The notes beneath the pieces were generated by a model. It searched no databases. It had not been told where the DNA came from and was given only the letters and a program-made list of their open reading frames with translations. Source: an uncultured Eubacterium sp. (GTDB taxonomy: Bacteria; Bacillota; Clostridia; Lachnospirales; Lachnospiraceae). Taken from it: 64,000 nt of DNA. Shown here piece after piece: positions 44,300-61,024 of this stretch (position 1 is its first letter; every line of letters starts with the position of its first letter). The translations under genes were made by a program, and so were the position numbers. The stretch covers positions 4,986 through 68,985 of the forward strand of contig CAKRGF010000010.1 of NCBI GenBank assembly GCA_934322085.1. The letters are read 5' to 3'.

Positions 44300-44570
44300 A
44301 ATTTCCGTGCAGCCGGGGAGATAGCGGTGCCCTGTACCTGCAATCCGCTATAGCAGGGGTGTTGTCCCATCGAGGGTCTTTTGACGGAGAGCTGCCCAAA
44401 GTAAGTGGCGTTGACACTTGGGTCTTGCGCAACAGGAACTTGTGAACCGTGTCAGGTCAGGAATGAAGCAGCACTAAGCAATCCTTCCTGTGTGACGCGA
44501 GGGTGCCTGAGCCTAGCTAACTGCTTTGGTAACGTCTTCTGATTTTGATTCGACATGGGATGCACGGATT
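44300..44570 (+). ncRNA. ffs: signal recognition particle RNA, large Bacillus-type (scRNA with Alu domain)
   Basis: It aligns closely with B. subtilis scRNA as I remember it. The Alu domain is gccggggagatagcggtgccctgtacctgcaatccgctatagcagggg and domain IV is gtgtcaggtcaggaatgaagcagc. A closing helix tccgtgca/tgcacgga is present. It is located after tadA, as in B. subtilis. Ends are +/-5 nt. Confidence 0.93.
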
Positions 44571-46923: not shown

Positions 46924-48192
46924 ATGAGTAGAAAACGAGAGAATGTGCGTCAGTGCAACACAATTCGTCAGTTAATTGACGACAATAAGTATACAAAAGC
47001 ACTCGAACTGATTGATACAATTTCTTTAGATGAAGTTGGCTCGTTAGGTGATTTATACCGTTATGCAGAACTGTATGAAAAAGCAGAGCGGATGGATAAA
47101 AAGAAAGAAATTTTTTACCATATCTATCATCGTACGCATTCCCGTTATATGTTGAATCGTCTGCTTCGTCTGACAATTCGTATGGGCGACATGGATGAAG
47201 CAAGAGAATTGTATTTTGCCTATGAGATTGCTGGGCCGATTACACTGGATACCTTTGAACTTCGTTATCTTCTTGCGAAAGCAGAGGGAGAACCGGCAGA
47301 GCGGCTGATTCAGATTTTGGAAGAATTGAAAAAGGAAGAATATACAGAAGAGTGGGGATTTCGTCTTGCCTGTCTGTATGAAAAGACTGGGCAGATTGAA
47401 AAATGCATTCAGGAATGTAAGGACTTGAAACTTTGGTTTGGCGAGGGGGAGATTGTAGATAAGGCAATGCAGTTGTTAGAGCATTGTGAAAACCCGGCGG
47501 TTACAGAACCGGAGGAATTAGAAGAGACGATTGAGAAGGAATTGCCGGAGCGAAGAGAAGAATATGAGCCGGTAGAACCGGAAGAAATAGAAGAAGAGCC
47601 ACAGGAAAATGAAGATGTGGAAGAGGCAGAGGAAAGCGAAGAGCCGGATGGTCCTTTGGTGGAGTCTGTGGGCGAAGTCAAGGTGGTGGCGAAGCGGAAG
47701 AAAGAAAAACCGCTTGCAAAACCGGAAAATGTAGAAGAACTGCTTGAAGAAAAGGAAGAGGACATTTCAGAGCGTGGTATTTTGTACCGTACGCTGAAAA
47801 GCGCAATGAATCATGTCCGCTATGGAGATAAAATGCCGCATTTTGTATTTGCCGGCGGCGAGGAGCGCATTGTGCTTGCAGTTGCAAAGCGCGTGGCGAA
47901 GGAACTGAACAGAGTGGGTTATGTTTCGGTGCGGAGTATCGTCAAAATTACAGCTGAAAAATTAAATCAAATTGATTTGGCGGAACAGGCAGGAAAAATT
48001 GCCGGCGGCTGTATGTTAGTGACAGATGCTGCTGAACTGACAAAAGAATCTGTCGACAAATTGAAGGCGGTGATTGAGCAGGAGGATGAAAAAGTCGTCA
48101 TCATGCTGGCTGGACCGTTTGATGAGATGGACTGCTTTTTAGACATCTATCCGGAATTAGCAGAAAAACTAGTGTATAAGATTCGTATGTGA
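46924..48192 (+). CDS. TPR-like / poly-acidic linker / degenerate CbbX-SpoVK-type AAA+ domain protein
   Basis: 422 aa. It has a helical-repeat N-terminus, an E-rich linker (about residues 195-250) and a C-terminal AAA-like fold. FAGGEERIV replaces Walker A and MLVTDAAEL replaces Walker B. The gap to the upstream gene is 3 nt. Confidence 0.55.
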   Translation: MSRKRENVRQCNTIRQLIDDNKYTKALELIDTISLDEVGSLGDLYRYAELYEKAERMDKKKEIFYHIYHRTHSRYMLNRLLRLTIRMGDMDEARELYFAYEIAGPITLDTFELRYLLAKAEGEPAERLIQILEELKKEEYTEEWGFRLACLYEKTGQIEKCIQECKDLKLWFGEGEIVDKAMQLLEHCENPAVTEPEELEETIEKELPERREEYEPVEPEEIEEEPQENEDVEEAEESEEPDGPLVESVGEVKVVAKRKKEKPLAKPENVEELLEEKEEDISERGILYRTLKSAMNHVRYGDKMPHFVFAGGEERIVLAVAKRVAKELNRVGYVSVRSIVKITAEKLNQIDLAEQAGKIAGGCMLVTDAAELTKESVDKLKAVIEQEDEKVVIMLAGPFDEMDCFLDIYPELAEKLVYKIRM

Positions 48193-50164: not shown

Positions 50165-50181
50165 AAAAAAGATAGAAAGGG

Positions 50182-50207
50182 AACGCCGAGGGTATCCGGC
50201 GTTTTCT
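50182..50207 (+). terminator. rho-independent terminator after murA
   Basis: aacgccg-loop-cggcgtt followed by ttctgtt. Confidence 0.55.
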
Positions 50208-50242: not shown

Positions 50243-51169
50243 GTGAACGATAAAGTACAAGAGATTCTGAATGAAGTTGGTAAAGTAATTCGTGGTAAGG
50301 ACGAAGCGATTGAACTTGTGATGACAGCGATGCTGGCCAAAGGTCATATCCTTGTAGAGGATGTTCCAGGTGTTGGTAAGACAACGCTGGCGGTTGCTTT
50401 TTCCCGTGCGATGGAATTGACAGAGCGACGTCTGCAGTTTACACCGGATGTGCTTCCAAGTGATGTAGTTGGTTTTAATATGATTGGTGCTGATGGTGAG
50501 TTTCAGTACAAACCTGGTGCAATTTTGTGTAACCTTCTGCTTGCAGATGAGATTAACCGTACCTCGACGAAAACACAGTCGGCTCTTTTGGAGGTCATGG
50601 AAGAAGGACAGGTAACGGTCGATGGTGTGACACGACAGCTGCCAAATCCATTTATTGTAGTGGCAACACAGAACCCAGTTGGTTCTGCCGGAACACAGAT
50701 GCTGCCGGAATCCCAGCTTGACCGATTTATGATTCGTATTTCGATGGGATATCCGACGATGGAAGAAGAAGTTCGTCTGATTAAAGAGCGTCAGGACATT
50801 AACCCACTTGATTTTATCCAGGAAATTATTTCAAAACGGGAACTGCTTGAAATGCAGGATCAGGTAAAACAGATTTATGTAGATGATAAAGTGCTTACTT
50901 ATTTATCGAAGATTGTGGATGCAACAAGAAATCATTCCATGATTACACTCGGCGTGAGTCCACGTGGAACACTTGCCCTTATGGATATGTCAAAAGCGCA
51001 TGCGTTCGTTCAGGGACGTACCTTCGTTTTGCCGGAGGATATCAAACGTGTTTCCAAAGCGGTACTTGCCCACCGTTTGTTGTTAAATGGTAAGGCACGT
51101 ATGAGCCACACGACAGAAGAAGATGTCGTTGAGGAAATCGTAGGGAAGATTCAAGTCCCTAAATTATAA
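50243..51169 (+). CDS. MoxR-family AAA+ ATPase
   Basis: 308 aa; GTG start after aaaggaga RBS; Walker A DVPGVGKT, Walker B LLADEINR, MoxR-type C-terminal region. Confidence 0.9.
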   Translation: MNDKVQEILNEVGKVIRGKDEAIELVMTAMLAKGHILVEDVPGVGKTTLAVAFSRAMELTERRLQFTPDVLPSDVVGFNMIGADGEFQYKPGAILCNLLLADEINRTSTKTQSALLEVMEEGQVTVDGVTRQLPNPFIVVATQNPVGSAGTQMLPESQLDRFMIRISMGYPTMEEEVRLIKERQDINPLDFIQEIISKRELLEMQDQVKQIYVDDKVLTYLSKIVDATRNHSMITLGVSPRGTLALMDMSKAHAFVQGRTFVLPEDIKRVSKAVLAHRLLLNGKARMSHTTEEDVVEEIVGKIQVPKL

Positions 51170-51202
51170 GTAACATGAGATATGATTCGGAAGGAGGAAA
51201 TT

Positions 51203-52330
51203 ATGACATTAGGAACTATCCTATACATTCTCCTTTTCTTTGTGAGTGTTTTCATTTCCATCATGTATTTGGAATTTGGTGCGATGGCACTGATGGGGCT
51301 GATGGTGACGATACCAGTCTGCATGTTTCTTTTTCTGCTTGTTTTGCGAAAGAGAGTCAGTGTGACAGTCGATTCGAAAAATCCACTGGCAGAAAAAGAC
51401 GCCATAGATAAGCCGGCGAGAGCGGCGATTACTCTGTCGGTAGAAAACAGAAGCCGTCTGCTTCCGGTGACGAAAGGAATTGCCAAGGTTCGTTATGAGA
51501 ATCCATTTTCCGGTGATAAAGGGAAGATGAAAGTTCGTTTTTCTGTGGATACCGGGAAAAAAAGAGACCGTAGAATCCCGGTTGTTATGGATAACTGTGG
51601 AAATGTTTCCATCACGGTAGAGAAGGTACGAATCTATGATTATTTGAATATATTTGCGTGGACAATTGGAAAGCATTTTGAGACGCAGGATGTGCTTGTT
51701 CTGCCACCGACTAAAGAGATGTATCTCGGAAAAGACAAATGGTATAACGAGACGAGTGCGGACAGCGACCGTTTTTCCACTTATAAAAAGGGAGATGACC
51801 CCTCTGAAATATTTGACATTCGTGAATATGCAGATGGGGATAAAATTCAGAGAATCCACTGGAAATTAAGCAGTAAAACCGGTGATTTGATGGTGAAAGA
51901 GGGAAGCCTTCCTCTGATGAAAGAAATTCATATTTTTATTGATTTATGTGCGACTGGTTCAAAGCAGGAAAGAAATGATAAAATGAACCGGCTGGTTCAG
52001 GGCGTGTATTCCATTGCTATGTTTATGATTGAAAGTGGAATCCCGCAGGCATATATTTGGTATGACAAGGTAAATGGTGTGATTCAGGAATATTCGGTGG
52101 AGCAGGAAGAAGAACTGTACTGGATGTTTCAGGAATTGTTCCGCAGTAAAACAACGACCGAGGCGGGTGAGCTGATGGAAGCTTATGTCGACTGGGGCAA
52201 AGGTAGACTTTTAGAATCGGCACTGTATCTGACAGTGGCTGACCACGATTCCTTAGATTCCGGGAATCTGGTGCGCGACCGACTGGAAGTAATGGACTTA
52301 CGAGGTGACGTAATTGAGGATCAGGAATAA
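51203..52330 (+). CDS. DUF58 domain protein (MoxR partner)
   Basis: It has N-terminal TM helices and the REYADGDKIQRIHWK motif characteristic of DUF58. ATG 51203 follows a ggaaggagga RBS. Confidence 0.8.
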   Translation: MTLGTILYILLFFVSVFISIMYLEFGAMALMGLMVTIPVCMFLFLLVLRKRVSVTVDSKNPLAEKDAIDKPARAAITLSVENRSRLLPVTKGIAKVRYENPFSGDKGKMKVRFSVDTGKKRDRRIPVVMDNCGNVSITVEKVRIYDYLNIFAWTIGKHFETQDVLVLPPTKEMYLGKDKWYNETSADSDRFSTYKKGDDPSEIFDIREYADGDKIQRIHWKLSSKTGDLMVKEGSLPLMKEIHIFIDLCATGSKQERNDKMNRLVQGVYSIAMFMIESGIPQAYIWYDKVNGVIQEYSVEQEEELYWMFQELFRSKTTTEAGELMEAYVDWGKGRLLESALYLTVADHDSLDSGNLVRDRLEVMDLRGDVIEDQE

Positions 52331-54752
52331 TAAACTGATTAATTTCATATTAGAATTCAGCCAGATTATGCTTGTATTTCTTGGTGTATATTCTGCCCTG
52401 ATGTGTACGGCGTCGAGTCTGGATATGATTTATGATGGAAGGTTATGCCTGCTATTATTGTTTGGAGCCTCCATCGTATTTTATGGATTGTTCACAGTGC
52501 TGGAGACATTCCGAAAGGGAAAACTTTACGGCTTAATCGGTATTACGATGTTCTTTTTGGCGTTAGTGATTCGATTTAAGGGGGCACTGTTAAAGGGAAT
52601 CGTGAGTGCAGCGAATAGTTTTCTGAAAGAGTTTATGAACTATACCGGCACGAATGTATCCCTTTTATCCTATGCAGATACGGAAAATGCGAGTGCTAAA
52701 TTCTGCACGACTCTTCTGCTGATTCTGATAGGTGTATATATCGTGGCACTTATCAGTGCGTTTTTCTACCGCAGAAGACGTTCGGTAGTCTTTTTGGCAG
52801 GTACGATACCATTTGTTTTTCTACCGCTTGTGGCAGGAAGAGTTGGACGTTATTTATACTTTTTTACCTATTTAATTGTGGCGGTGACAATTATCGGAAC
52901 AAGGCATTTGCGGACCGATGCCACAGATCGAAGGATGCGCCAGAAACTGGCACTGATTCTGATGGCAACTTGTCTGATTTGCGGCGGTGTATTTTACTTG
53001 TTTATTCCACCTTCGAGATATGATAGGAATGTGGATAAATTGTCTCAGGCAAAGAATAGCCTGGTGGCACTTACGACATGGGACGGAGAGGATATTGTAA
53101 CCTGGCTGAAAGCATACTTTAACGGAGATGCGATTTCCTATGGTAAAATTGGCAAGAAAGGTGAAGTCAGTTATACCGGTGAGACGATGCTGAAAATATC
53201 AGGAGATATCAATTCTGACCATGGGCTTTATCTCAAAGGTTATGTCGGCGATGTCTATGAGAATAACAAATGGTCATCCATTCGCTCGGATGAAAACTAT
53301 AAGAAAGACTGGAAAACTCTCGATGCAACCGGTGTCACAACAGAAAACTGGCATACGCAGTTAAGAAACGAGCTTGGTGACGAGGAGCAGAGCGGCGAAG
53401 AAGAGGTCTGGAAAACCGGAACATTAAGAATTCGCAATCTTGCATTTGGCTATGGAAACTTTTTGGTGCCATGCCTTCCAACCGGGGCATATAAGAGTCT
53501 CGCAAATGGACGCTCGACGGTGGATAAACCGGGAATTGATTACTCGGTAGAATATTATTTGCGCTATCCTACAATTCTGCGCACCGATGTTTTACTTGGT
53601 GAATCTCGTATGGCAGCAGCCGGCTTTTGGAGTTCAAATGAGGTTGAGCGGAGGAATTTAAGTGATTTTGCAAAAAAATATTATTTGCAGATTCCTGATT
53701 CCATGAAATCGATTTGCGAGGATTTTAAAAAGGATTGCCAATCTGCCGATTTGACGAAGGCGTCCGACATTATTCTTGAAGCAAAGAGTTATATTACAAA
53801 AGATACGACGTATTCCTTATCGCCGGGCAAAACCCCTTCCGGTAAGGAATCCATTGAATACTTTTTAAAGGAAAATAAAAAAGGATATTGTACCTATTAC
53901 GCGACGGCAGCCGTTATGCTGTTACGCAGTATGGGAATCCCGGCACGTTACGTCGAGGGTATGTATGTCAGTAAAGATGAACTGACAGCTGTCAAAAAAG
54001 GCAAAGAACTTGAAGTGCCGGATGAAGACGCTCATGCATGGGTTGAAGTCTTTGATGAAAAATATGGATTTGTAACCGTTGAAGTGACGCCGGGCAAAGG
54101 TGAGGATGATATGACAGGAAGTGATTCCTCCAATGAAAACACCAATCCGAACCAGACTTCGAACGGAACACAGACAGATTCCGAAAATCCATCACAGGAA
54201 GACGCTCCGAATGTTGCGACACCAACCCCTTCGGTGACACAGGAACCGGAAGAGAGCATGGTGTTTGATGACATCAAGCAAAACGACAAAAAATCCAGTG
54301 ACAGTGGAAATGCAAACGGCACATCCAAAGGACGGATATGGTTTGTAATTTTAGATATTGTGATTGTGTTACTGCTCATTGCTGTGGCAATGGAAGCACA
54401 GCGGAGGATACGAGCTTACATGTTTAGAAAGAATATGAAGCAGAAGAAAGCGAAAAGGCGTATCCGTATGGTATACCTGCATTTGTTCCCGGTATTCCAC
54501 CGCTACAAGCTTGCTTACCGCGGACAGTCGATGGCGCAGTTTAGCAGGGAAATCAGCAGAGAGATGGAACTTCCTTTTGAGGATGTGCTTGAATTTGTGA
54601 CTTTAATTTTCCACGCAAGATTTGGTCCGGACACGATTACGGAAGACCAATTAAGAGAGTTCAAACGGGTTTATCACGAAATCCGCAGTAAAGCATATCG
54701 TGATGCAAAGCCGATGCGAAAACTATATTATATGTATATCATGGTATTATAA
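52314..54752 (+). CDS. polytopic membrane protein with transglutaminase-like domain
   Basis: 812 aa. It has multiple N-terminal TM helices and the transglutaminase core GYCTYYATAAVMLLRSMGIPARYVEGM...AHAWVEVF. A low-complexity region, one further TM helix and a C-terminal domain follow. Confidence 0.8.
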   Translation: MRIRNNKLINFILEFSQIMLVFLGVYSALMCTASSLDMIYDGRLCLLLLFGASIVFYGLFTVLETFRKGKLYGLIGITMFFLALVIRFKGALLKGIVSAANSFLKEFMNYTGTNVSLLSYADTENASAKFCTTLLLILIGVYIVALISAFFYRRRRSVVFLAGTIPFVFLPLVAGRVGRYLYFFTYLIVAVTIIGTRHLRTDATDRRMRQKLALILMATCLICGGVFYLFIPPSRYDRNVDKLSQAKNSLVALTTWDGEDIVTWLKAYFNGDAISYGKIGKKGEVSYTGETMLKISGDINSDHGLYLKGYVGDVYENNKWSSIRSDENYKKDWKTLDATGVTTENWHTQLRNELGDEEQSGEEEVWKTGTLRIRNLAFGYGNFLVPCLPTGAYKSLANGRSTVDKPGIDYSVEYYLRYPTILRTDVLLGESRMAAAGFWSSNEVERRNLSDFAKKYYLQIPDSMKSICEDFKKDCQSADLTKASDIILEAKSYITKDTTYSLSPGKTPSGKESIEYFLKENKKGYCTYYATAAVMLLRSMGIPARYVEGMYVSKDELTAVKKGKELEVPDEDAHAWVEVFDEKYGFVTVEVTPGKGEDDMTGSDSSNENTNPNQTSNGTQTDSENPSQEDAPNVATPTPSVTQEPEESMVFDDIKQNDKKSSDSGNANGTSKGRIWFVILDIVIVLLLIAVAMEAQRRIRAYMFRKNMKQKKAKRRIRMVYLHLFPVFHRYKLAYRGQSMAQFSREISREMELPFEDVLEFVTLIFHARFGPDTITEDQLREFKRVYHEIRSKAYRDAKPMRKLYYMYIMVL

Positions 54753-54765
54753 GGAGGACAAGAAC

Positions 54766-55377
54766 ATGCTGAAAAAAACGTATGATAAAGTGTGTGAATT
54801 ATTTGAGGAGGGAAATGGTTATCTGCCGACCCGTACATTGCTTAACAATAAAATCACGACGATTCAGATTCGTACGATGCTGCAGGAAGGCAAGATTGAG
54901 AAAGTGTCTCACGGTAATTACTGGAACTTAATGAGTGGCAGAAAGAAACCAAAACATTACAAAATGTTAGAAGCCTGTATGACAAACAAAAAGGCTGTTA
55001 TCTGCTCTTTAAGCGCATGCTATTATCACGGATTGATTAAGGATGAGCCGGACTGTTTGTATGTGGCAACAGCCCGTACTGACCGTGGGAACATGAAGTT
55101 AAACTTCCCGGTTTCCCGCCATTATTTTTCTGTTACAACATTTGAAGATGATGTCTTGAATGTTAAAACAGGTGGTGGCAGCATTCGTATTTATGATGTG
55201 GACCGCAGTGTATGTGACTGTATACGTCTTGAGAAAGAAATTGGAAAAGAAACCGTACAGCTTGTGGTTGAAAACTATAAAAAGAGCAATAAAAAAAGAA
55301 TGAATCACCTTTTACAGTATGCGGATCAGATGCGTTATGGCAAAATTGTCCGCGAATACCTTGGAACGGATGAGTGA
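54766..55377 (+). CDS. AbiEi-family (type IV TA antitoxin/transcriptional regulator)-like protein
   Basis: 203 aa. The wHTH-like N-terminus is NGYLPTRTLLNNKITTIQIRTMLQEGKIEKVSHGNYW. The C-terminal half (ICSLSACYYHGLIKDEP...IRIYDVDRSVCDCIR) is like AbiEi. An aaggagga RBS lies 7 nt upstream. Confidence 0.65.
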   Translation: MLKKTYDKVCELFEEGNGYLPTRTLLNNKITTIQIRTMLQEGKIEKVSHGNYWNLMSGRKKPKHYKMLEACMTNKKAVICSLSACYYHGLIKDEPDCLYVATARTDRGNMKLNFPVSRHYFSVTTFEDDVLNVKTGGGSIRIYDVDRSVCDCIRLEKEIGKETVQLVVENYKKSNKKRMNHLLQYADQMRYGKIVREYLGTDE

Positions 55378-55382
55378 TATAG

Positions 55383-56075
55383 ATGGAAAAAGACGAAAAG
55401 AAAAAAGGTACGATGCTTGATGAGTCCTTTTTGCAGGAGCTAATGCAGAATGAACAGGTTGAGCAGATATTGGAAGAAGGCGAGGCGTTTCAGACATTGA
55501 TGGCGTACTACCGGTGTGCCATCATGGAAGTAGAGACCAAATTTAAGGTGCTCAACACCGAATTTAGTCTCCGCTATGACAGAAACCCGATTGAGACGAT
55601 AAAAACAAGACTCAAATCGCCAGAAAGTATTATTGAAAAACTTCACCGCAAAAAGATTCCATTTTCTGCGGAAATGATCGAGGAAAAGCTGCATGATATA
55701 GCCGGTGTACGCGTTATCTGCGCATTTCCGGAGGACATTTATGAGATTAGTGAATGTTTTTTGGCTCAGGATGATATTCGTTTGATTGAGAAAAAGGATT
55801 ACATCAAAAATCCAAAACCAAACGGGTATAGGAGCCTTCATTTGATTGTGGAAATTCCTATCTTTTTGCATAACGAAAAACGAATGATGAAAGCGGAAGT
55901 ACAGTTCCGTACAATTGCCATGGATTTTTGGGCAAGTTTAGAACACCGTATTTATTATAAAAAAGGACAGAATAACGAGACGCTGCGCAATGAGTTAAGG
56001 CAATGCGCGGAAGTGAGTGCCGCATTGGATTTACGTATGCAGAGTATCCGAAAGGAACTCGATGTGGACGATTAA
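55383..56075 (+). CDS. small alarmone synthetase (RelQ/RelP-type GTP pyrophosphokinase)
   Basis: 230 aa; RSH synthetase motifs DIAGVRVIC, NGYRSLHLIV and EVQFRTIAMDFWASLEH. Confidence 0.88.
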   Translation: MEKDEKKKGTMLDESFLQELMQNEQVEQILEEGEAFQTLMAYYRCAIMEVETKFKVLNTEFSLRYDRNPIETIKTRLKSPESIIEKLHRKKIPFSAEMIEEKLHDIAGVRVICAFPEDIYEISECFLAQDDIRLIEKKDYIKNPKPNGYRSLHLIVEIPIFLHNEKRMMKAEVQFRTIAMDFWASLEHRIYYKKGQNNETLRNELRQCAEVSAALDLRMQSIRKELDVDD

Positions 56076-56168: not shown

Positions 56169-56714
56169 ATGAAAGCAACAGGAATTGTACGAAGAATTGA
56201 TGATTTAGGACGTGTGGTCGTGCCAAAAGAAATCCGGAGAACCCTTAGGATTCGCGAGGGTGAACCGCTTGAAATATTTACAAACCGCGAAGGAGGCATT
56301 GTATTAAAGAAGTATTCACCCATAGGAGAGCTTGCCGCATTTGCGAAAGAATATGTGGAGGCGGTTGCGCAGGTGGCGAAATGCACCGTGTGTGTGACGG
56401 ACAGAGACCAGATTGTGGCGGCGGCAGGACCGAGAAAAAAGGACTATGCCGGAAAAACCATTCACCGTGAATTGCTGGAAGCAATTGAGGATAGACGGAC
56501 GATTCTGGCAACGGATGCTGAACCGGACTTTAGTCAGGTAACAGAGGACGAGAAAGAAGTATTTTCCGAAGCAGCGGCGACCATTTTAGCAGAAGGTGAT
56601 GCTATCGGAATGGTGCTTTTACTGTCCTGCGACACAGAACGCATATTTGGCGATTTTGAGCAAAAAATGGCGATTTGTGGTGCAAACTTTTTAGGACGGC
56701 AGATGGAACCCTGA
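56169..56714 (+). CDS. spoVT: stage V sporulation protein T (AbrB-family regulator with GAF-like domain)
   Basis: 181 aa; N-terminal MKATGIVRRIDDLGRVVVPKEIRRTLRIREGEPLEIF. Confidence 0.92.
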   Translation: MKATGIVRRIDDLGRVVVPKEIRRTLRIREGEPLEIFTNREGGIVLKKYSPIGELAAFAKEYVEAVAQVAKCTVCVTDRDQIVAAAGPRKKDYAGKTIHRELLEAIEDRRTILATDAEPDFSQVTEDEKEVFSEAAATILAEGDAIGMVLLLSCDTERIFGDFEQKMAICGANFLGRQMEP

Positions 56715-56740
56715 TAAATAAAACAATATGCAGAAAAACC

Positions 56741-56769
56741 TTGACAATTACTACCAAAAAGGTTATATA
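56741..56769 (+). promoter_or_regulatory. candidate sigma-A promoter of hup
   Basis: TTGACA-17 nt-TATATA. Confidence 0.55.
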
Positions 56770-56825
56770 TAGATGTATAGGTTGTTCAAATCTAGCAAAT
56801 AATTTTTTTGAGGAGGATATAATCC

Positions 56826-57101
56826 ATGAATAAGACTGAATTAGTAGCAGCTATGGCTGAGAAAGCAGAATTATCTAAGAAAGACGCTGAGAGTGCATTG
56901 AAAGCATTCGTAGATGTTGTTACAGATGAATTAAAAAAAGGTGAAAAAGTACAGTTGGTTGGTTTTGGTTCTTTCGAAGTTGCTGAGAGAGCAGCAAGAG
57001 AAGGTATCAACCCATTGACAAAACAGCCGATGAGCATTCCTGCTTCTAAAGCTCCTAAATTCAAAGCCGGCAGAGGTTTGAAGGACGCTGTGAACGCATA
57101 A
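56826..57101 (+). CDS. hup: HU-family nucleoid DNA-binding protein
   Basis: 91 aa; MNKTELVAAMAEKAELSKKDAE...GFGSFEV..RAAREGINP.T. Confidence 0.95.
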   Translation: MNKTELVAAMAEKAELSKKDAESALKAFVDVVTDELKKGEKVQLVGFGSFEVAERAAREGINPLTKQPMSIPASKAPKFKAGRGLKDAVNA

Positions 57102-57128
57102 TCTTACGATTGTTATTATGGATTTTTG

Positions 57129-57167
57129 GAGCACTTTGCTATCGCATATAGCAGAGTGCTCTTTGTT
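57129..57167 (+). terminator. rho-independent terminator after hup
   Basis: gagcactttgctat-cgcat-atagcagagtgctc followed by tttgtt. Confidence 0.75.
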
Positions 57168-57234
57168 ATGCTTTGCCAGACTGCGGATGAAACCGCGTGT
57201 GAGGCAGGACTTGACAGAAGAAGGGAGATTTTCT

Positions 57235-57474
57235 ATGAGACTGGATAAATACTTAAAGGTATCCCGCCTGATCAAGCGCCGTACAGTGGCGAATGAGGCG
57301 TGCGACGCCGGACGAATTTTAGTCAATGATAAGGTGGCAAAAGCATCGTTGAATGTTAAGCCGGGCGATGTCATCGAGATTCAGTTCGGAAACCGGAATA
57401 CAAAAGTAGAAGTATTGAGCATAAACGAAACGTACAAAAAGGATGAAGCCAAAGAACTTTATCGGTATGTGTAA
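57235..57474 (+). CDS. yabO: S4-domain RNA-binding protein YabO-like
   Basis: 79 aa from ATG 57235; MRLDKYLKVSRLIKRRTVANEA..GRILVN S4 motif. Confidence 0.85.
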   Translation: MRLDKYLKVSRLIKRRTVANEACDAGRILVNDKVAKASLNVKPGDVIEIQFGNRNTKVEVLSINETYKKDEAKELYRYV

Positions 57475-57531
57475 TAACCCCCCCTGTGACAGCATATAGT
57501 GAGATAGATATGATGCCAGGGGGCTTTTATT

Positions 57532-57819
57532 ATGTTGCAGGAATCTTCCCGGCCGGTGACGGCACATAAATTGGAGATGCAGAATCGTAATCACGTGGAT
57601 TTAACCGGAATTACGGAAGTGGTTTCTTTTGATAATAAAGAAATTGAATTGGAGACCGTAGAAGGTGCCGTGCGCTTTGCGGGTGAGGATTTGCATGTAA
57701 AGCGCCTTACGCTTGAAAAAGGCGAGGTGGAATTAGAAGGAAGGATTCGTGAGATTGTCTATCATGAGTCGAGAAAGGAAAAGACGGCAGGGGGTGTTCT
57801 TGGCCGTTTGTTTGGCTGA
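57532..57819 (+). CDS. yabP: sporulation protein YabP
   Basis: 95 aa; HKLEMQNRNHVDLTGITEVVSFDNKEIELET..G.....GEDLHVKRLTLEKGEVELEG. Confidence 0.9.
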   Translation: MLQESSRPVTAHKLEMQNRNHVDLTGITEVVSFDNKEIELETVEGAVRFAGEDLHVKRLTLEKGEVELEGRIREIVYHESRKEKTAGGVLGRLFG

Positions 57820-58193
57820 TGGAAATGATACAGGGGCAGCTCATGTATGTTGCCGCCTCCTTTGCGGAGGGTGTTTTTTTAATGTTTTTGTATGATTTTA
57901 TCCGGGCGTTCCGCATGAAAGTAAAGCATGGCAGGATTGGAATTCTGATTGAGGACTGGTTGTTTTGGACATTGGCGGCATTTTTTGTATTTCCTATGAT
58001 TTTCACGCTCAATCATGGATTGCTCCGCAGTTTTTTTGTGATTGCACTGACCTTGGGCGTTTTTTTATATCGAACTTTGGTAAAAACGCATGTACAAAGA
58101 GCAATTTATGGATTTTTTAGACTTATTTTTCGACCGTATGTTTGGATTTTTAAAAAAATAAAAGGAATACAGAAAAAACACTTGAAATCGTGA
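57819..58193 (+). CDS. yabQ: spore cortex biosynthesis protein YabQ
   Basis: 124 aa membrane protein directly following yabP (ATG overlaps stop). Confidence 0.8.
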   Translation: MEMIQGQLMYVAASFAEGVFLMFLYDFIRAFRMKVKHGRIGILIEDWLFWTLAAFFVFPMIFTLNHGLLRSFFVIALTLGVFLYRTLVKTHVQRAIYGFFRLIFRPYVWIFKKIKGIQKKHLKS

Positions 58194-58273
58194 AAGTCAG
58201 CGTCTATAATGAGATTATTAGTACTACAAGTATAGAAAATACAATTGTAGAATAATGTTGAGGGGATGGAGCC

Positions 58274-58561
58274 GTGAGAAGAAGAAAAAGAAGAAACCGC
58301 ACCGGGATTTATCTGGTTATGCTGGTGGCAGCCTTGTTTGTTGGCACATTAGCGGTTCATGGTTATTCACTGCGTGCAAACTGTCAGAAGCTTGCGACGG
58401 AGCAGCAGAATCTAAAAGAGAAAAAAAAGAGTTTGAAAAAAGAACAGGAACAGATTAAAGAACAAAAAGAGTATCGTAAAACAGACCAGTATGTGGAAGA
58501 TGTAGCGCGTGAGAAGTTTGGTCTGGTATACGATAATGAAATTGTATTTAAGGCAGAATAA
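58274..58561 (+). CDS. divIC: septum formation initiator family protein (DivIC/FtsB)
   Basis: 95 aa; TM helix, coiled coil, C-terminal VEDVAREKFGLVYDNEIVF. Confidence 0.85.
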   Translation: MRRRKRRNRTGIYLVMLVAALFVGTLAVHGYSLRANCQKLATEQQNLKEKKKSLKKEQEQIKEQKEYRKTDQYVEDVAREKFGLVYDNEIVFKAE

Positions 58562-58567
58562 GAACGA

Positions 58568-58596
58568 AGACCACTGCTTAGGCGGTGGTCTTTTTT
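58568..58596 (+). terminator. rho-independent terminator after divIC
   Basis: gaccactgc-ttag-gcggtggtc followed by TTTTTT. Confidence 0.75.
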
Positions 58597-58661
58597 GTCG
58601 AAAAATTTTTTAAAATGCCCTTCCGATTTTGACATTTTTCTCTGTATGCACTCTTTATACT
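58596..58661 (+). promoter_or_regulatory. spoIIE promoter candidate: Spo0A box plus -35/-10 with 21-bp spacer
   Basis: TGTCGAA (58596-58602); TTGACA (58629)-21 nt-TATACT (58656). Confidence 0.5.
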
Positions 58662-58696
58662 GAGAGTGTTAAGAGAAAGACAAGGGGGCACGGATT

Positions 58697-61024
58697 TTGA
58701 AGGACAAGAAACAAAAAATATGTTTTGACAAACGATATTTGCTATTGTTAGTGGCGGGATTTCTGACCGGACGCGTGTGGCTGTATGGAATTAATCCTTT
58801 TGGTGTGGCATTGTTTGCTGCGGTGGCGGCGGAACGAAAAGGCAGGAAACTTTTGGCGCTTTTTGTTTTGGCTGGCATGTTTAGCAGTATAGAAGGGCTT
58901 TCGCTTATTAAGTATCTCACGCTCTTTCTGCTTGTGTTGTCACTCGAAAAAATACAGGAAAAGTGGACAAGCCATACCGGACAGGCGGTGTATTTAGCAC
59001 TTCTTACCGGCGGCTTAAATATGGCGGCAGGTATTTTGAACAGTATTCTTGCCGTAAATACATGGGAAGTATTTTGGCTCAGCATTCTTGAAAGTGTCAT
59101 GGTATTTGCACTTGCCAATGTGTATCAATGGGGTGTGCATTTTATTTTGTATGAGGAGTGGAGTCGATTATTTAACAATGAGGAATTGATAAGTATTCTT
59201 ATCCTTGCGGTGACAGCGCTGTATGGGCTGCCGAGGCAGGCGGATATGATTTTTTCGATTTCCGGAACACTTTCTTATTTCATGATTTTGTTTATGGGAT
59301 ACCGGTATGGGGCGTCGACCGGCGCCATTGCCGGGGCAGCCGGAGGAATTTTACTGGCACTTACCGGAGAAAATATGGTGGTCGTCGGCATTTGCTGTCT
59401 GCTTGGTGTGTGTGCGGGAACGCTGCGTAAAATGGGACGCTTTGTAAGTGGCGGTCTGTATCTGCTTGTTGGTGTGCTGCTTGCCGTGTATTCGCTAAAG
59501 GACTTGTATGGCATTATTGAACTGCGGGCAATGCTGTCGGCGGTTATTTTGTTCTTTGCCATTCCAAGGCGGGTCATTCACTGCGTGGAAGAGGACATGC
59601 CAGAGCGGGAAGAGGATTCCTTTGCCAAAGAGGATGTCCGCTCGCTTGCTAACCATCAGCTGGAAGACTTTTCCGATGCCTTTCGCCGGCTGTCCAAGAG
59701 TTTTGAAAGTGAAATAGAAGAAAAAGGGTTGTCGGAAGAGCGGTTAGAGGATATTTTTGCACAGCTGTCCCGTGATACGTGCAATGAATGTATCAATTGT
59801 AAATATTGCTGGAACCGCCATTATGAGGAGACTAATGAAAGTCTGCGGCGGATTTTGTGGCAGGTGGGGCAGGACGGAAGCGTAACACTGTCACAGATTA
59901 GTCCGGATTTTCAAAGACGCTGTATGCACTTAGATGAATATGTGCATCAGGTCGAGGAGAGGATTGCCGGGGAAAATGTGAGACTTGGCTGGCATAACCG
60001 GATGTCGGAAAACCGCCGCGTGATGGCGGAGCAGATGAAAGAAATTGCGGTGGCGTTAAAATCGTTTACCATTAATTTGGGAGAGACAGAGGAACTTCCC
60101 AAAGAGCGAAAACGAAGAATTTTAGAAGAATTAAAAAAAGAGGGCATCAAGGTGGCACGTTTATCGGTGAAAAAAAGGGGAGGATATCTGGAAGTAATGT
60201 TTACCGGTGCCTGCCATGGCAATCATTGTTTGACAAAGACCGATGTTGCACAGGCGCTGTACCGTGCGACCGGCATTATGATGTGTCCGGCAAGAGAGAC
60301 AAGAAACGTGCTTTCTTCCACAACGGATACGATGTTTTTCAGACAGGACACGGTGTATAAGGCACTTACGGGGCTTGCCAGAGTTGCCAAAAGCGGCGAG
60401 AGTGTGTCGGGCGACAATTATTCGTTTTTGGAACTTTCGGGAACCGGTGAACTTCTCATGGTTTTGACGGACGGCATGGGAAGTGGTGAAATGGCGGACC
60501 GTGACAGCAGCAATCTGATTGAGGCACTGGAATATCTGATGGAGGCTGGGTTTGAAAAAAAATCGGCGCTCAGGCTTCTGAATACGCTGTTTGTTGCAAA
60601 TTATGAGGGAAAATCATTTGCAACACTTGATATGGCAGCAATTAACCTTCATACCGGTATTTGTGAAATTATGAAAAACGGAGCCGCAACTACTTTTGTA
60701 AAGCGGGAAGACGGAGTAGAAATGATTGCCTCCAGTGCGCTTCCGGTCGGAGTGGATTTGCAGGCGGAGCCGGATGTCGCCGTCGTACAATTGCAGGAAG
60801 GCGATATGGTTATCATGGTTTCGGACGGCGTGCTTGACAGTTTTTATGAGAGAAATATAGAGAGCGACAGTCAGGAGGAGATGGCGACACTCATTGACCG
60901 GCTGTACTGCAAAAATGCGAATGATATGGCAAACCAGATTTTGATGAATACACTGGCGCACAGCACAAAAGAAGCGTCTGACGATATGAGCGTTTTGGTG
61001 GCTGGAATCTGGAATAAAGTTTGA
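58697..61024 (+). CDS. spoIIE: stage II sporulation protein E (PP2C phosphatase)
   Basis: 775 aa; about 10 N-terminal TM helices, central regulatory region, C-terminal PP2C domain (SGDNYSF..., TDGMGSG, MVSDGV, DDMSVLV). Confidence 0.92.
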   Translation: MKDKKQKICFDKRYLLLLVAGFLTGRVWLYGINPFGVALFAAVAAERKGRKLLALFVLAGMFSSIEGLSLIKYLTLFLLVLSLEKIQEKWTSHTGQAVYLALLTGGLNMAAGILNSILAVNTWEVFWLSILESVMVFALANVYQWGVHFILYEEWSRLFNNEELISILILAVTALYGLPRQADMIFSISGTLSYFMILFMGYRYGASTGAIAGAAGGILLALTGENMVVVGICCLLGVCAGTLRKMGRFVSGGLYLLVGVLLAVYSLKDLYGIIELRAMLSAVILFFAIPRRVIHCVEEDMPEREEDSFAKEDVRSLANHQLEDFSDAFRRLSKSFESEIEEKGLSEERLEDIFAQLSRDTCNECINCKYCWNRHYEETNESLRRILWQVGQDGSVTLSQISPDFQRRCMHLDEYVHQVEERIAGENVRLGWHNRMSENRRVMAEQMKEIAVALKSFTINLGETEELPKERKRRILEELKKEGIKVARLSVKKRGGYLEVMFTGACHGNHCLTKTDVAQALYRATGIMMCPARETRNVLSSTTDTMFFRQDTVYKALTGLARVAKSGESVSGDNYSFLELSGTGELLMVLTDGMGSGEMADRDSSNLIEALEYLMEAGFEKKSALRLLNTLFVANYEGKSFATLDMAAINLHTGICEIMKNGAATTFVKREDGVEMIASSALPVGVDLQAEPDVAVVQLQEGDMVIMVSDGVLDSFYERNIESDSQEEMATLIDRLYCKNANDMANQILMNTLAHSTKEASDDMSVLVAGIWNKV

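Follow-up and report, generated by a model that had tools for sequence, protein, structure and literature searches.

An AbiEi-family gene and a RelP-type alarmone synthetase gene as probable neighbours by lineage-specific synteny in gut Lachnospiraceae

Introduction

AbiE systems are bicistronic operons. Their first product, AbiEi (COG5340), consists of a winged helix-turn-helix (wHTH) and a C-terminal domain and represses its own operon through inverted repeats in the promoter, and the gene directly downstream encodes AbiEii (DUF1814), a GTP-binding nucleotidyltransferase (NTase) of the pol-beta type (Dy et al., 2014, PMC3985639). AbiEi is also reported to bind AbiEii and to induce its auto-phosphorylation by means of the loop D85/E86/I87, which reaches into the active site of the toxin (preprint 10.64898/2026.01.19.700257). 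Here, we analyse a pair of genes from an uncultured Eubacterium sp. in which an AbiEi-like gene is followed, 5 nt downstream, by the gene of a small alarmone synthetase (SAS). The pair lies in a 64,000-nt stretch of contig CAKRGF010000010.1 (assembly GCA_934322085.1, positions 4,986 to 68,985), which is called the window throughout, and all positions are window coordinates unless a locus is named.

The second group of related systems are the toxic SAS (toxSAS) modules FaRel, FaRel2, PhRel, PhRel2 and CapRel, which resemble the window pair in that a small RelA_SpoT enzyme is encoded beside a small antitoxin-family gene. These modules were recognised by two-gene arrangements that are conserved across lineages, and in the same work RelP of Staphylococcus aureus and RelQ of Enterococcus faecalis were non-toxic and not arranged as toxin-antitoxin (TA) pairs (Jimmy et al., 2020, PMC7229694).

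A preliminary description of the window had read the pair as an AbiEi-like regulator whose usual partner AbiEii is replaced by the SAS, knew of no description of such a pairing and cautioned that the two genes may be adjacent by coincidence. In the literature searched, no described AbiEi-SAS pairing turned up: the word 'AbiE' is found neither in the toxSAS discovery paper (PMC7229694) nor in the NetFlax paper, and the two terms are co-mentioned in two reviews only. A loosely framed search for orphan AbiEi genes brought up irrelevant papers only. The evidence presented below favours a coincidental adjacency.

Gene neighbourhoods on both sides of the pair

The pair comprises the following features, with both reading frames where the preliminary description had placed them:

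54766..55377, + strand: AbiEi-like gene, 203 aa, ATG at 54766, stop codon at 55375-55377
55378..55382, + strand: spacer between the AbiEi-like stop codon and the SAS start, 5 nt in the window and 6-21 nt in eight other directly adjacent species
55383..56075, + strand: RelP-type SAS gene, 230 aa, ATG at 55383, stop codon at 56073-56075, single RelA_SpoT domain

By our analysis, the two chromosomal genes are quite probably independent of each other in function and are neighbours by lineage-specific synteny within a restricted group of Lachnospiraceae from the gut. The observations that carry this reading come from the neighbourhoods of both genes. One genome per species was scanned for homologues of the AbiEi-like protein, which yielded 80 loci with 44-97% identity, and the gut and rumen bacteria that carry them are all labelled Lachnospiraceae, Eubacterium or Clostridium. 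The flanks of each gene were covered to a distance of about 7 kb by mapping the window proteins, clustering the flanking open reading frames (ORFs) and searching with a hidden Markov model (HMM) of the SAS; 72 of the 80 loci, with at least 1.2 kb of downstream sequence, were evaluable on this side. A SAS gene was present within 7 kb of the AbiEi-like gene in 12 of these 72 species and absent in 60. Eight of the 12 linked loci are directly adjacent (6-21 nt), and in the other four a DUF2752 gene (123-130 aa) lies in between, at a distance of 404-465 nt. In a neighbour-joining tree of 81 proteins, all 12 fall into one subclade of the transglutaminase clade, and inside this subclade eight further evaluable species have other genes downstream, among them SpoVT, metallophosphoesterase and AraA; at locus L004, SpoVT follows the AbiEi-like gene after a small ORF. 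The sister subclade carries chemoreceptor (MCP) or ThyX genes at this position.

The wider context tracks the protein tree as well. AbiEi-like genes of clade 1 follow murA-MoxR-DUF58-transglutaminase, those of clade 2 have an ABC-transporter pair on one side and a purine-nucleoside phosphorylase (PNP) plus amidohydrolase on the other, and those of clade 3 come after a class-I glutamine amidotransferase (GATase). Because the flanks track the phylogeny of the AbiEi-like protein, vertical descent is indicated. Among 54 representatives of all neighbour clusters (120-520 aa) from the 80 genomes, none matched an AbiEii model of PADLOC, and the Pfam families of the neighbours are metabolic and transport families (PNP, amidohydrolase, MCP, AraA and ThyX, for example). 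An ORF of 277-308 aa downstream in 35 loci, which had the size of an AbiEii, turned out to be a PNP_UDP_1 phosphorylase.

Seen from the SAS, the picture is the same. In a metagenome scan we obtained another 80 loci centred on a SAS (55-98% identity), and 66 of them had enough upstream sequence to be informative. Searching these with the AbiEi HMM, we detected a gene in two loci, both with 98% identity and from the window's own species, and none in the other 64. The recurrent SAS neighbours in the metagenome loci are HAD hydrolase, TauE, NUDIX, TetR, radical SAM, GH31 and DHH/DHHA1 genes; an upstream ORF of 199-215 aa, which by its size could have been a divergent AbiEi-like gene, is a HAD hydrolase. 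Individual homologues illustrate both situations. P0214 stands in a MoxR-transglutaminase-AbiEi-DUF2752-SAS locus. Two others with 75% identity each have no AbiEi-like gene: P0218 comes after a divergent amino-acid ABC transporter, and P0201 follows a 137-aa ORF and Fic. Intact SAS orthologues with about 75% identity are preceded by an amino-acid ABC transporter in L083 and by Fic plus a small ORF in L085 and L089. The 137-aa ORF upstream of the AbiEi-less SAS genes, considered as a relative of DUF2752, is not DUF2752-like.

Since the two genes are found apart on both sides, both persist independently and their link is shallow. The neighbourhood conservation on which the preliminary description had made its proposal depend is limited to one subclade in one direction (12/72) and to two loci in the other (2/66). 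The proposal that the SAS replaces AbiEii as the functional partner is not upheld: most related genomes lack the adjacency, each gene persists without the other, and the SAS is of the RelP type (see below).

Several recurrent features were noticed around the two genes. The DUF2752 gene that separates the AbiEi-like gene from the SAS encodes a membrane protein (Pfam 1.5e-16) and was seen in L007 (7609-7983), L011, L014, L017 and L081 (4596-4988); in L010 it precedes a metallophosphoesterase gene and not a SAS. A small conserved ORF (64-85 aa) with no Pfam match recurs just 3' of one or other of the two genes: it follows the SAS in L006, L009, L014 and L016, was seen also in L004 (7672-7881) and L025, and is absent from the window. 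In other gut taxa, RelP-type SAS orthologues repeatedly follow the gene of a HAD-family hydrolase at a distance of 28 nt (L091, L116, L118, L119, L126, L128, L135), stand next to a NUDIX hydrolase gene (L137) or share a 7-nt overlap with a DHH/DHHA1 phosphoesterase gene (L164, L165). These combinations may represent pairs for alarmone synthesis and degradation.

The AbiEi-like protein

The protein encoded at 54766-55377 is a genuine two-domain member of the AbiEi family (COG5340), as the preliminary description had proposed. Pfam does not assign it (AbiEi_4 12.2 bits, cut-off 25), and the NCBIfam scan gave no match. The PADLOC AbiEi model PDLC02225, the best one, covers the full length with E=2.8e-42, and a profile of 26 family members aligned residues 11-200 to the AbiEi of Streptococcus agalactiae (6Y8Q/9HLO; E=1e-14). 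An AlphaFold (AF2) model with a pLDDT of 89 and a pTM of 0.84 gave 6Y8Q as the top Foldseek match (E=2e-13, TM 0.63-0.65, 23% identity), followed by Rv2827c of Mycobacterium tuberculosis (1ZEL). NCBI lists the homologues as 'AbiEi family antitoxin domain-containing protein'. With 203 aa compared with 195 aa, the window protein has about the same length as its counterpart from S. agalactiae, and both begin with a winged HTH that is followed by a C-terminal domain.

The loop through which AbiEi contacts its toxin is kept in part. K92-D93-E94-P95 of the window protein aligns with the antitoxin loop D85-E86-I87-P88 of S. agalactiae AbiEi, so that an acidic loop ending in proline is found at the same position. 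Across the family, E94 is conserved to at least 90% and P95 is invariant, and the two preceding loop positions vary. In total, 40 columns are invariant and 24 near-invariant among 26 homologues.

Behind AbiEi and Rv2827c, Foldseek returned weak matches to the small nucleotidyltransferases ANT(2'')-Ia, TM1012 and MenT1 (E 4e-3 to 0.1, prob 0.9-0.99). This hints that a part of the modelled AbiEi-like protein may resemble an NTase-like fold.

Relatives outside the family are distant. None were found in a viral contig collection, the nearest plasmid and phage relatives (tblastn) share 22-28% identity, and a profile search for remoter homologues returned in-family members only. The best plasmid relative, on pPC03 of Paenibacillus, belongs to a canonical AbiEi-AbiEii/AbiGii pair with 1 nt between the genes. 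Two Clostridium plasmid relatives have no AbiEii listed in a gene table that omits pseudogenes.

The alarmone synthetase

RelA_SpoT is the sole significant Pfam domain of the SAS (1.2e-33, profile positions 1-112 of 113). In the PDB, the best match was RelP (YwaC) of Bacillus subtilis (6FGK, 4.7e-57, 47% identity), followed by RelP of S. aureus (4.4e-52, 42% identity). The scores were graded accordingly, with 196 and 180 bits for RelP, 130-115 bits for RelQ and 28 bits for CapRel; RelQ/YjbM matched with about 7e-37 or weaker and the toxSAS CapRel with 1.7e-5. Besides CapRel, no other toxSAS chain in the PDB matched at E<=1e-3. The protein scored 177 bits on the NCBIfam equivalog for RelQ/YjbM and is not a RelQ, because this is below the cut-off of 320. 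By these PDB and NCBIfam comparisons the SAS is RelP-type, closer to RelP than to RelQ and not a member of a toxSAS subfamily. The preliminary description had called it RelQ/RelP-type and likened it to a housekeeping RelQ; the housekeeping character holds, and the choice between the two names falls on RelP.

Like RelP (YwaC/SAS2; PDB 6FGK, 6EWZ), the window SAS has a single RelA_SpoT domain, belongs to the size range of about 210-230 aa and aligns nearly end to end. All synthetase motifs are present (DIAGVR, NGYRSLH, EVQ.RT, WASLEH), and the motif columns are invariant in 17 SAS orthologues. Judged by its homology to RelP, the enzyme would transfer pyrophosphate from ATP to GTP/GDP and make (p)ppGpp in normal stress signalling. 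It differs from the described RelP proteins in coming from a member of the Lachnospiraceae and in being encoded by what is probably the last gene of a MoxR operon, in place of a gene with an envelope-stress promoter. It also matches the PADLOC candidate PDC-S33 with 3.7e-25; this match spans profile positions 28-175 of 349 only, which is the common synthetase domain, and not the full length of the 349-position single-gene model.

Transcription and genomic setting

The flanks of the pair agree with the preliminary description, which had named MoxR, DUF58 and transglutaminase genes upstream, a 13-nt gap and no terminator; the DUF58 assignment is marginal. The flanking genes are:

50243..51169, + strand: MoxR-type AAA+ ATPase (Pfam AAA_3 3.4e-53, AAA_lid_2 8.5e-26)
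51182..52330, + strand: DUF58-like membrane protein (Pfam DUF58 23.1 bits, marginally under the 23.4 cut-off)
52314..54752, + strand: transglutaminase-like membrane protein (Pfam Transglut_core 2.1e-22)
56169..56714, + strand: SpoVT, the downstream border (Pfam SpoVT_C 7e-42 plus an AbrB/MazE-type N-terminus)

The DUF58-like gene is syntenic in 27 related genome loci. Upstream of the MoxR gene lies murA, after which a + strand terminator-like hairpin (50178-50207) was found just before MoxR, and the MoxR ATPase gene is probably the first gene of the transcription unit. A second + strand terminator-like hairpin (57128-57162) comes after hup, and no such site was found on this strand between 50207 and 57128. 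The gap between the transglutaminase stop codon and the ATG of the AbiEi-like gene is 13 nt (54753-54765), and the ribosome-binding site AAGGAGG of the latter (54751-57) overlaps this stop codon. A longer version of the AbiEi-like ORF, with 225 aa from a GTG at 54700, was rejected: it overlaps the transglutaminase gene and has no ribosome-binding site, and the 203-aa form agrees with the lengths of the homologues. A convincing + strand promoter was found in the window neither before the AbiEi-like gene nor before the SAS. Given gaps of 13 and 5 nt that contain no terminator, transcription from the promoter of the MoxR-DUF58-transglutaminase genes probably continues through the AbiEi-like gene and the SAS.

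The only inverted repeat upstream of the AbiEi-like gene in the window is the one at 54673-54704, and the 13-nt gap has no promoter-like site on the + strand. As a possible operator this 10-nt inverted repeat finds no support, since its conservation ends with the two nearest relatives; we estimate that about 0.5 such repeats are expected by chance.

The situation differs in the ABC/PNP clade. In L033-L056 and relatives (L038:6850-7000, for example), the AbiEi-like gene has a conserved, TG-extended promoter, TTTACA-17 nt-TATAAT, about 150 nt upstream of the start. With this promoter of its own, the AbiEi-like gene is a stand-alone unit in that clade. No conserved inverted repeat was seen at the promoter. 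In L037, L038, L040, L043, L044, L045, L050 and L056, the leader contains a hairpin followed by a U-run (CCACAAGC...GCTTGTGGTTTTT), the arms of which vary between species and yet remain complementary. The hairpin with its U-run may be an attenuator, and the promoter and leader fit a stand-alone regulated gene.

In terms of composition, the pair does not stand out. Its GC content is about 0.40 in a local range of 0.37-0.51, and the composition profile shows no island at this site. Over 14.6 kb the DNA of the window is about 94% identical to Clostridium sp. AF37-5. No mobile-element or defence-island context was found at the pair, which has murA, the spoVT-spoIIE cluster and other core genes around it. 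Near the AbiEi-like/SAS locus, no Rfam family was detected.

Compared with AbiE, the locus differs in the following respects: no AbiEii/DUF1814 gene adjoins the AbiEi-like gene in the 80 species, and in the window the downstream gene encodes a RelA_SpoT synthetase; the gene is chromosomal and vertically inherited among core genes, not carried on mobile elements; and in the window neither a convincing promoter of its own nor a conserved inverted repeat as operator was found. It differs from the toxSAS modules in that the window SAS is far from the toxSAS structures in the PDB and that the arrangement is not conserved across lineages.

Weighing the explanations

If the two genes are independent, the AbiEi-like protein would be an orphan which has kept the whole two-domain AbiEi architecture, with no AbiEii nearby, and which has been inherited vertically across at least 80 species of Lachnospiraceae. 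It would most likely act as a winged-helix DNA-binding regulator; alternatively, it may act together with an unlinked partner. The close spacing to the SAS would then reflect compact operon packing after a local rearrangement and not a toxin-antitoxin relationship.

Several points weigh against this independence. A spacing of 5 nt in the same orientation is typical of functionally linked genes, and the pair persists in nine species including the window. L017 keeps AbiEi, DUF2752 and SAS together even though the upstream transglutaminase gene is gone. The E-P of the toxin-inserting loop is kept in the family, which suggests that a function towards a protein partner has not obviously decayed. 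Finally, the comparison covered flanks of about 7 kb, and these genomes may carry an AbiEii gene or another SAS gene at a more distant site. Despite these points, we rate a real functional link between AbiEi and SAS in the window's subclade as very unlikely at best. One form of it would be that the orphan AbiEi-like protein was recruited as a controller of the RelP-type synthetase, either by transcriptional repression or by binding the NTase-fold active site with its conserved E-P loop, and this we hold to be highly improbable; if true, the pair would form a growth switch that works through alarmones and is analogous to AbiE. More likely than such a recruitment is a milder version, in which the whole AbiEii-less clade would be a domesticated antitoxin that now serves as an ordinary chromosomal transcription factor.

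Another form would be a new module of the AbiE or toxSAS kind, in which the SAS is a growth-arresting effector, held back by the AbiEi-like protein through repression and/or neutralisation as long as no phage infection or stress occurs. RelA_SpoT synthetases and AbiEii are both nucleotidyltransferase-fold enzymes, and this likeness would support such a module together with the 5-nt gap on the same strand, the true AbiEi homology over both domains, the conserved acidic E-P loop and the match of the SAS to PDC-S33. We nevertheless regard it as very unlikely. The adjacency occurs in 12 of 72 species from one subclade and is interrupted by the DUF2752 gene in four of them, SAS orthologues are intact where no AbiEi-like gene lies upstream, and the AbiEi-like gene, loop included, is equally conserved in the 60 species that have no SAS nearby. 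RelP, moreover, is a subfamily found to be non-toxic, and the PDC-S33 match covers the synthetase domain only. The setting speaks against a module too: the mobile-element or defence-island context is missing, there is no room for a dedicated autoregulated promoter, and the sole upstream inverted repeat is not conserved.

A link to the upstream genes, with the AbiEi-like protein as a functional fourth component of the MoxR-DUF58-transglutaminase operon, for instance as its regulator, is unlikely in our estimation. In its favour, the AbiEi-like gene comes straight after the transglutaminase gene in 29 species-representative genomes, with identities as low as 54% and gaps of 13-140 nt, and neither a terminator nor a promoter separates the two in the window. 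About 50 other species, however, carry the AbiEi-like gene with no MoxR operon within 7 kb, the ABC/PNP clade has its own promoter, and the link to the transglutaminase is lost in L017. In addition, murA further upstream is also syntenic, which points to general regional synteny and not to a specific linkage. A decaying AbiE remnant that lost its toxin and has no remaining function would account for the missing AbiEii partner, and on plasmids, too, there are AbiEi genes for which no AbiEii is listed. We find decay hardly credible, since full-length ORFs are intact in 80 species at 44-97% identity, the 40 invariant and 24 near-invariant columns are maintained, the fold is predicted with confidence and one clade has a conserved dedicated promoter. 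Intact ORFs, conserved columns and promoter indicate purifying selection, not decay.

Independence of the two genes, which we prefer, carries a caution for the search for new systems: an AbiEi annotation beside a nucleotide-modifying enzyme mimics a new defence or TA module, and it is the sampling of neighbourhoods from both sides that shows the lineage-specific synteny. The AbiEii-less AbiEi clade, well conserved and vertically inherited across gut Lachnospiraceae, is a case in which a member of an antitoxin family exists as a stable gene of the chromosome. Defence-system predictors keyed on AbiEi alone would mis-call it. Should the minority reading of a functional link be true after all, AbiE-type antitoxins would be connected to alarmone synthetases through the regulation of nucleotidyltransferase-fold enzymes.

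Further features of the window

The SAS is followed after 93 nt by spoVT, the first gene of a core sporulation cluster that lies directly downstream on the + strand (56169-61024) and comprises spoVT, hup, an S4 domain gene, yabP, yabQ, a divIC-like gene and spoIIE. The cluster confirms the core-chromosome setting and a spore-forming member of the Clostridia as the source. Upstream of the MoxR genes, a 422-aa protein encoded at 46924-48192 (+ strand), directly before a flavin reductase-like gene, has a long Glu-rich low-complexity middle part and no Pfam match. The only gathering-level Rfam match in the window is the bacterial large SRP RNA (RF01854, 190.7 bits) at 44305-44567 on the + strand.

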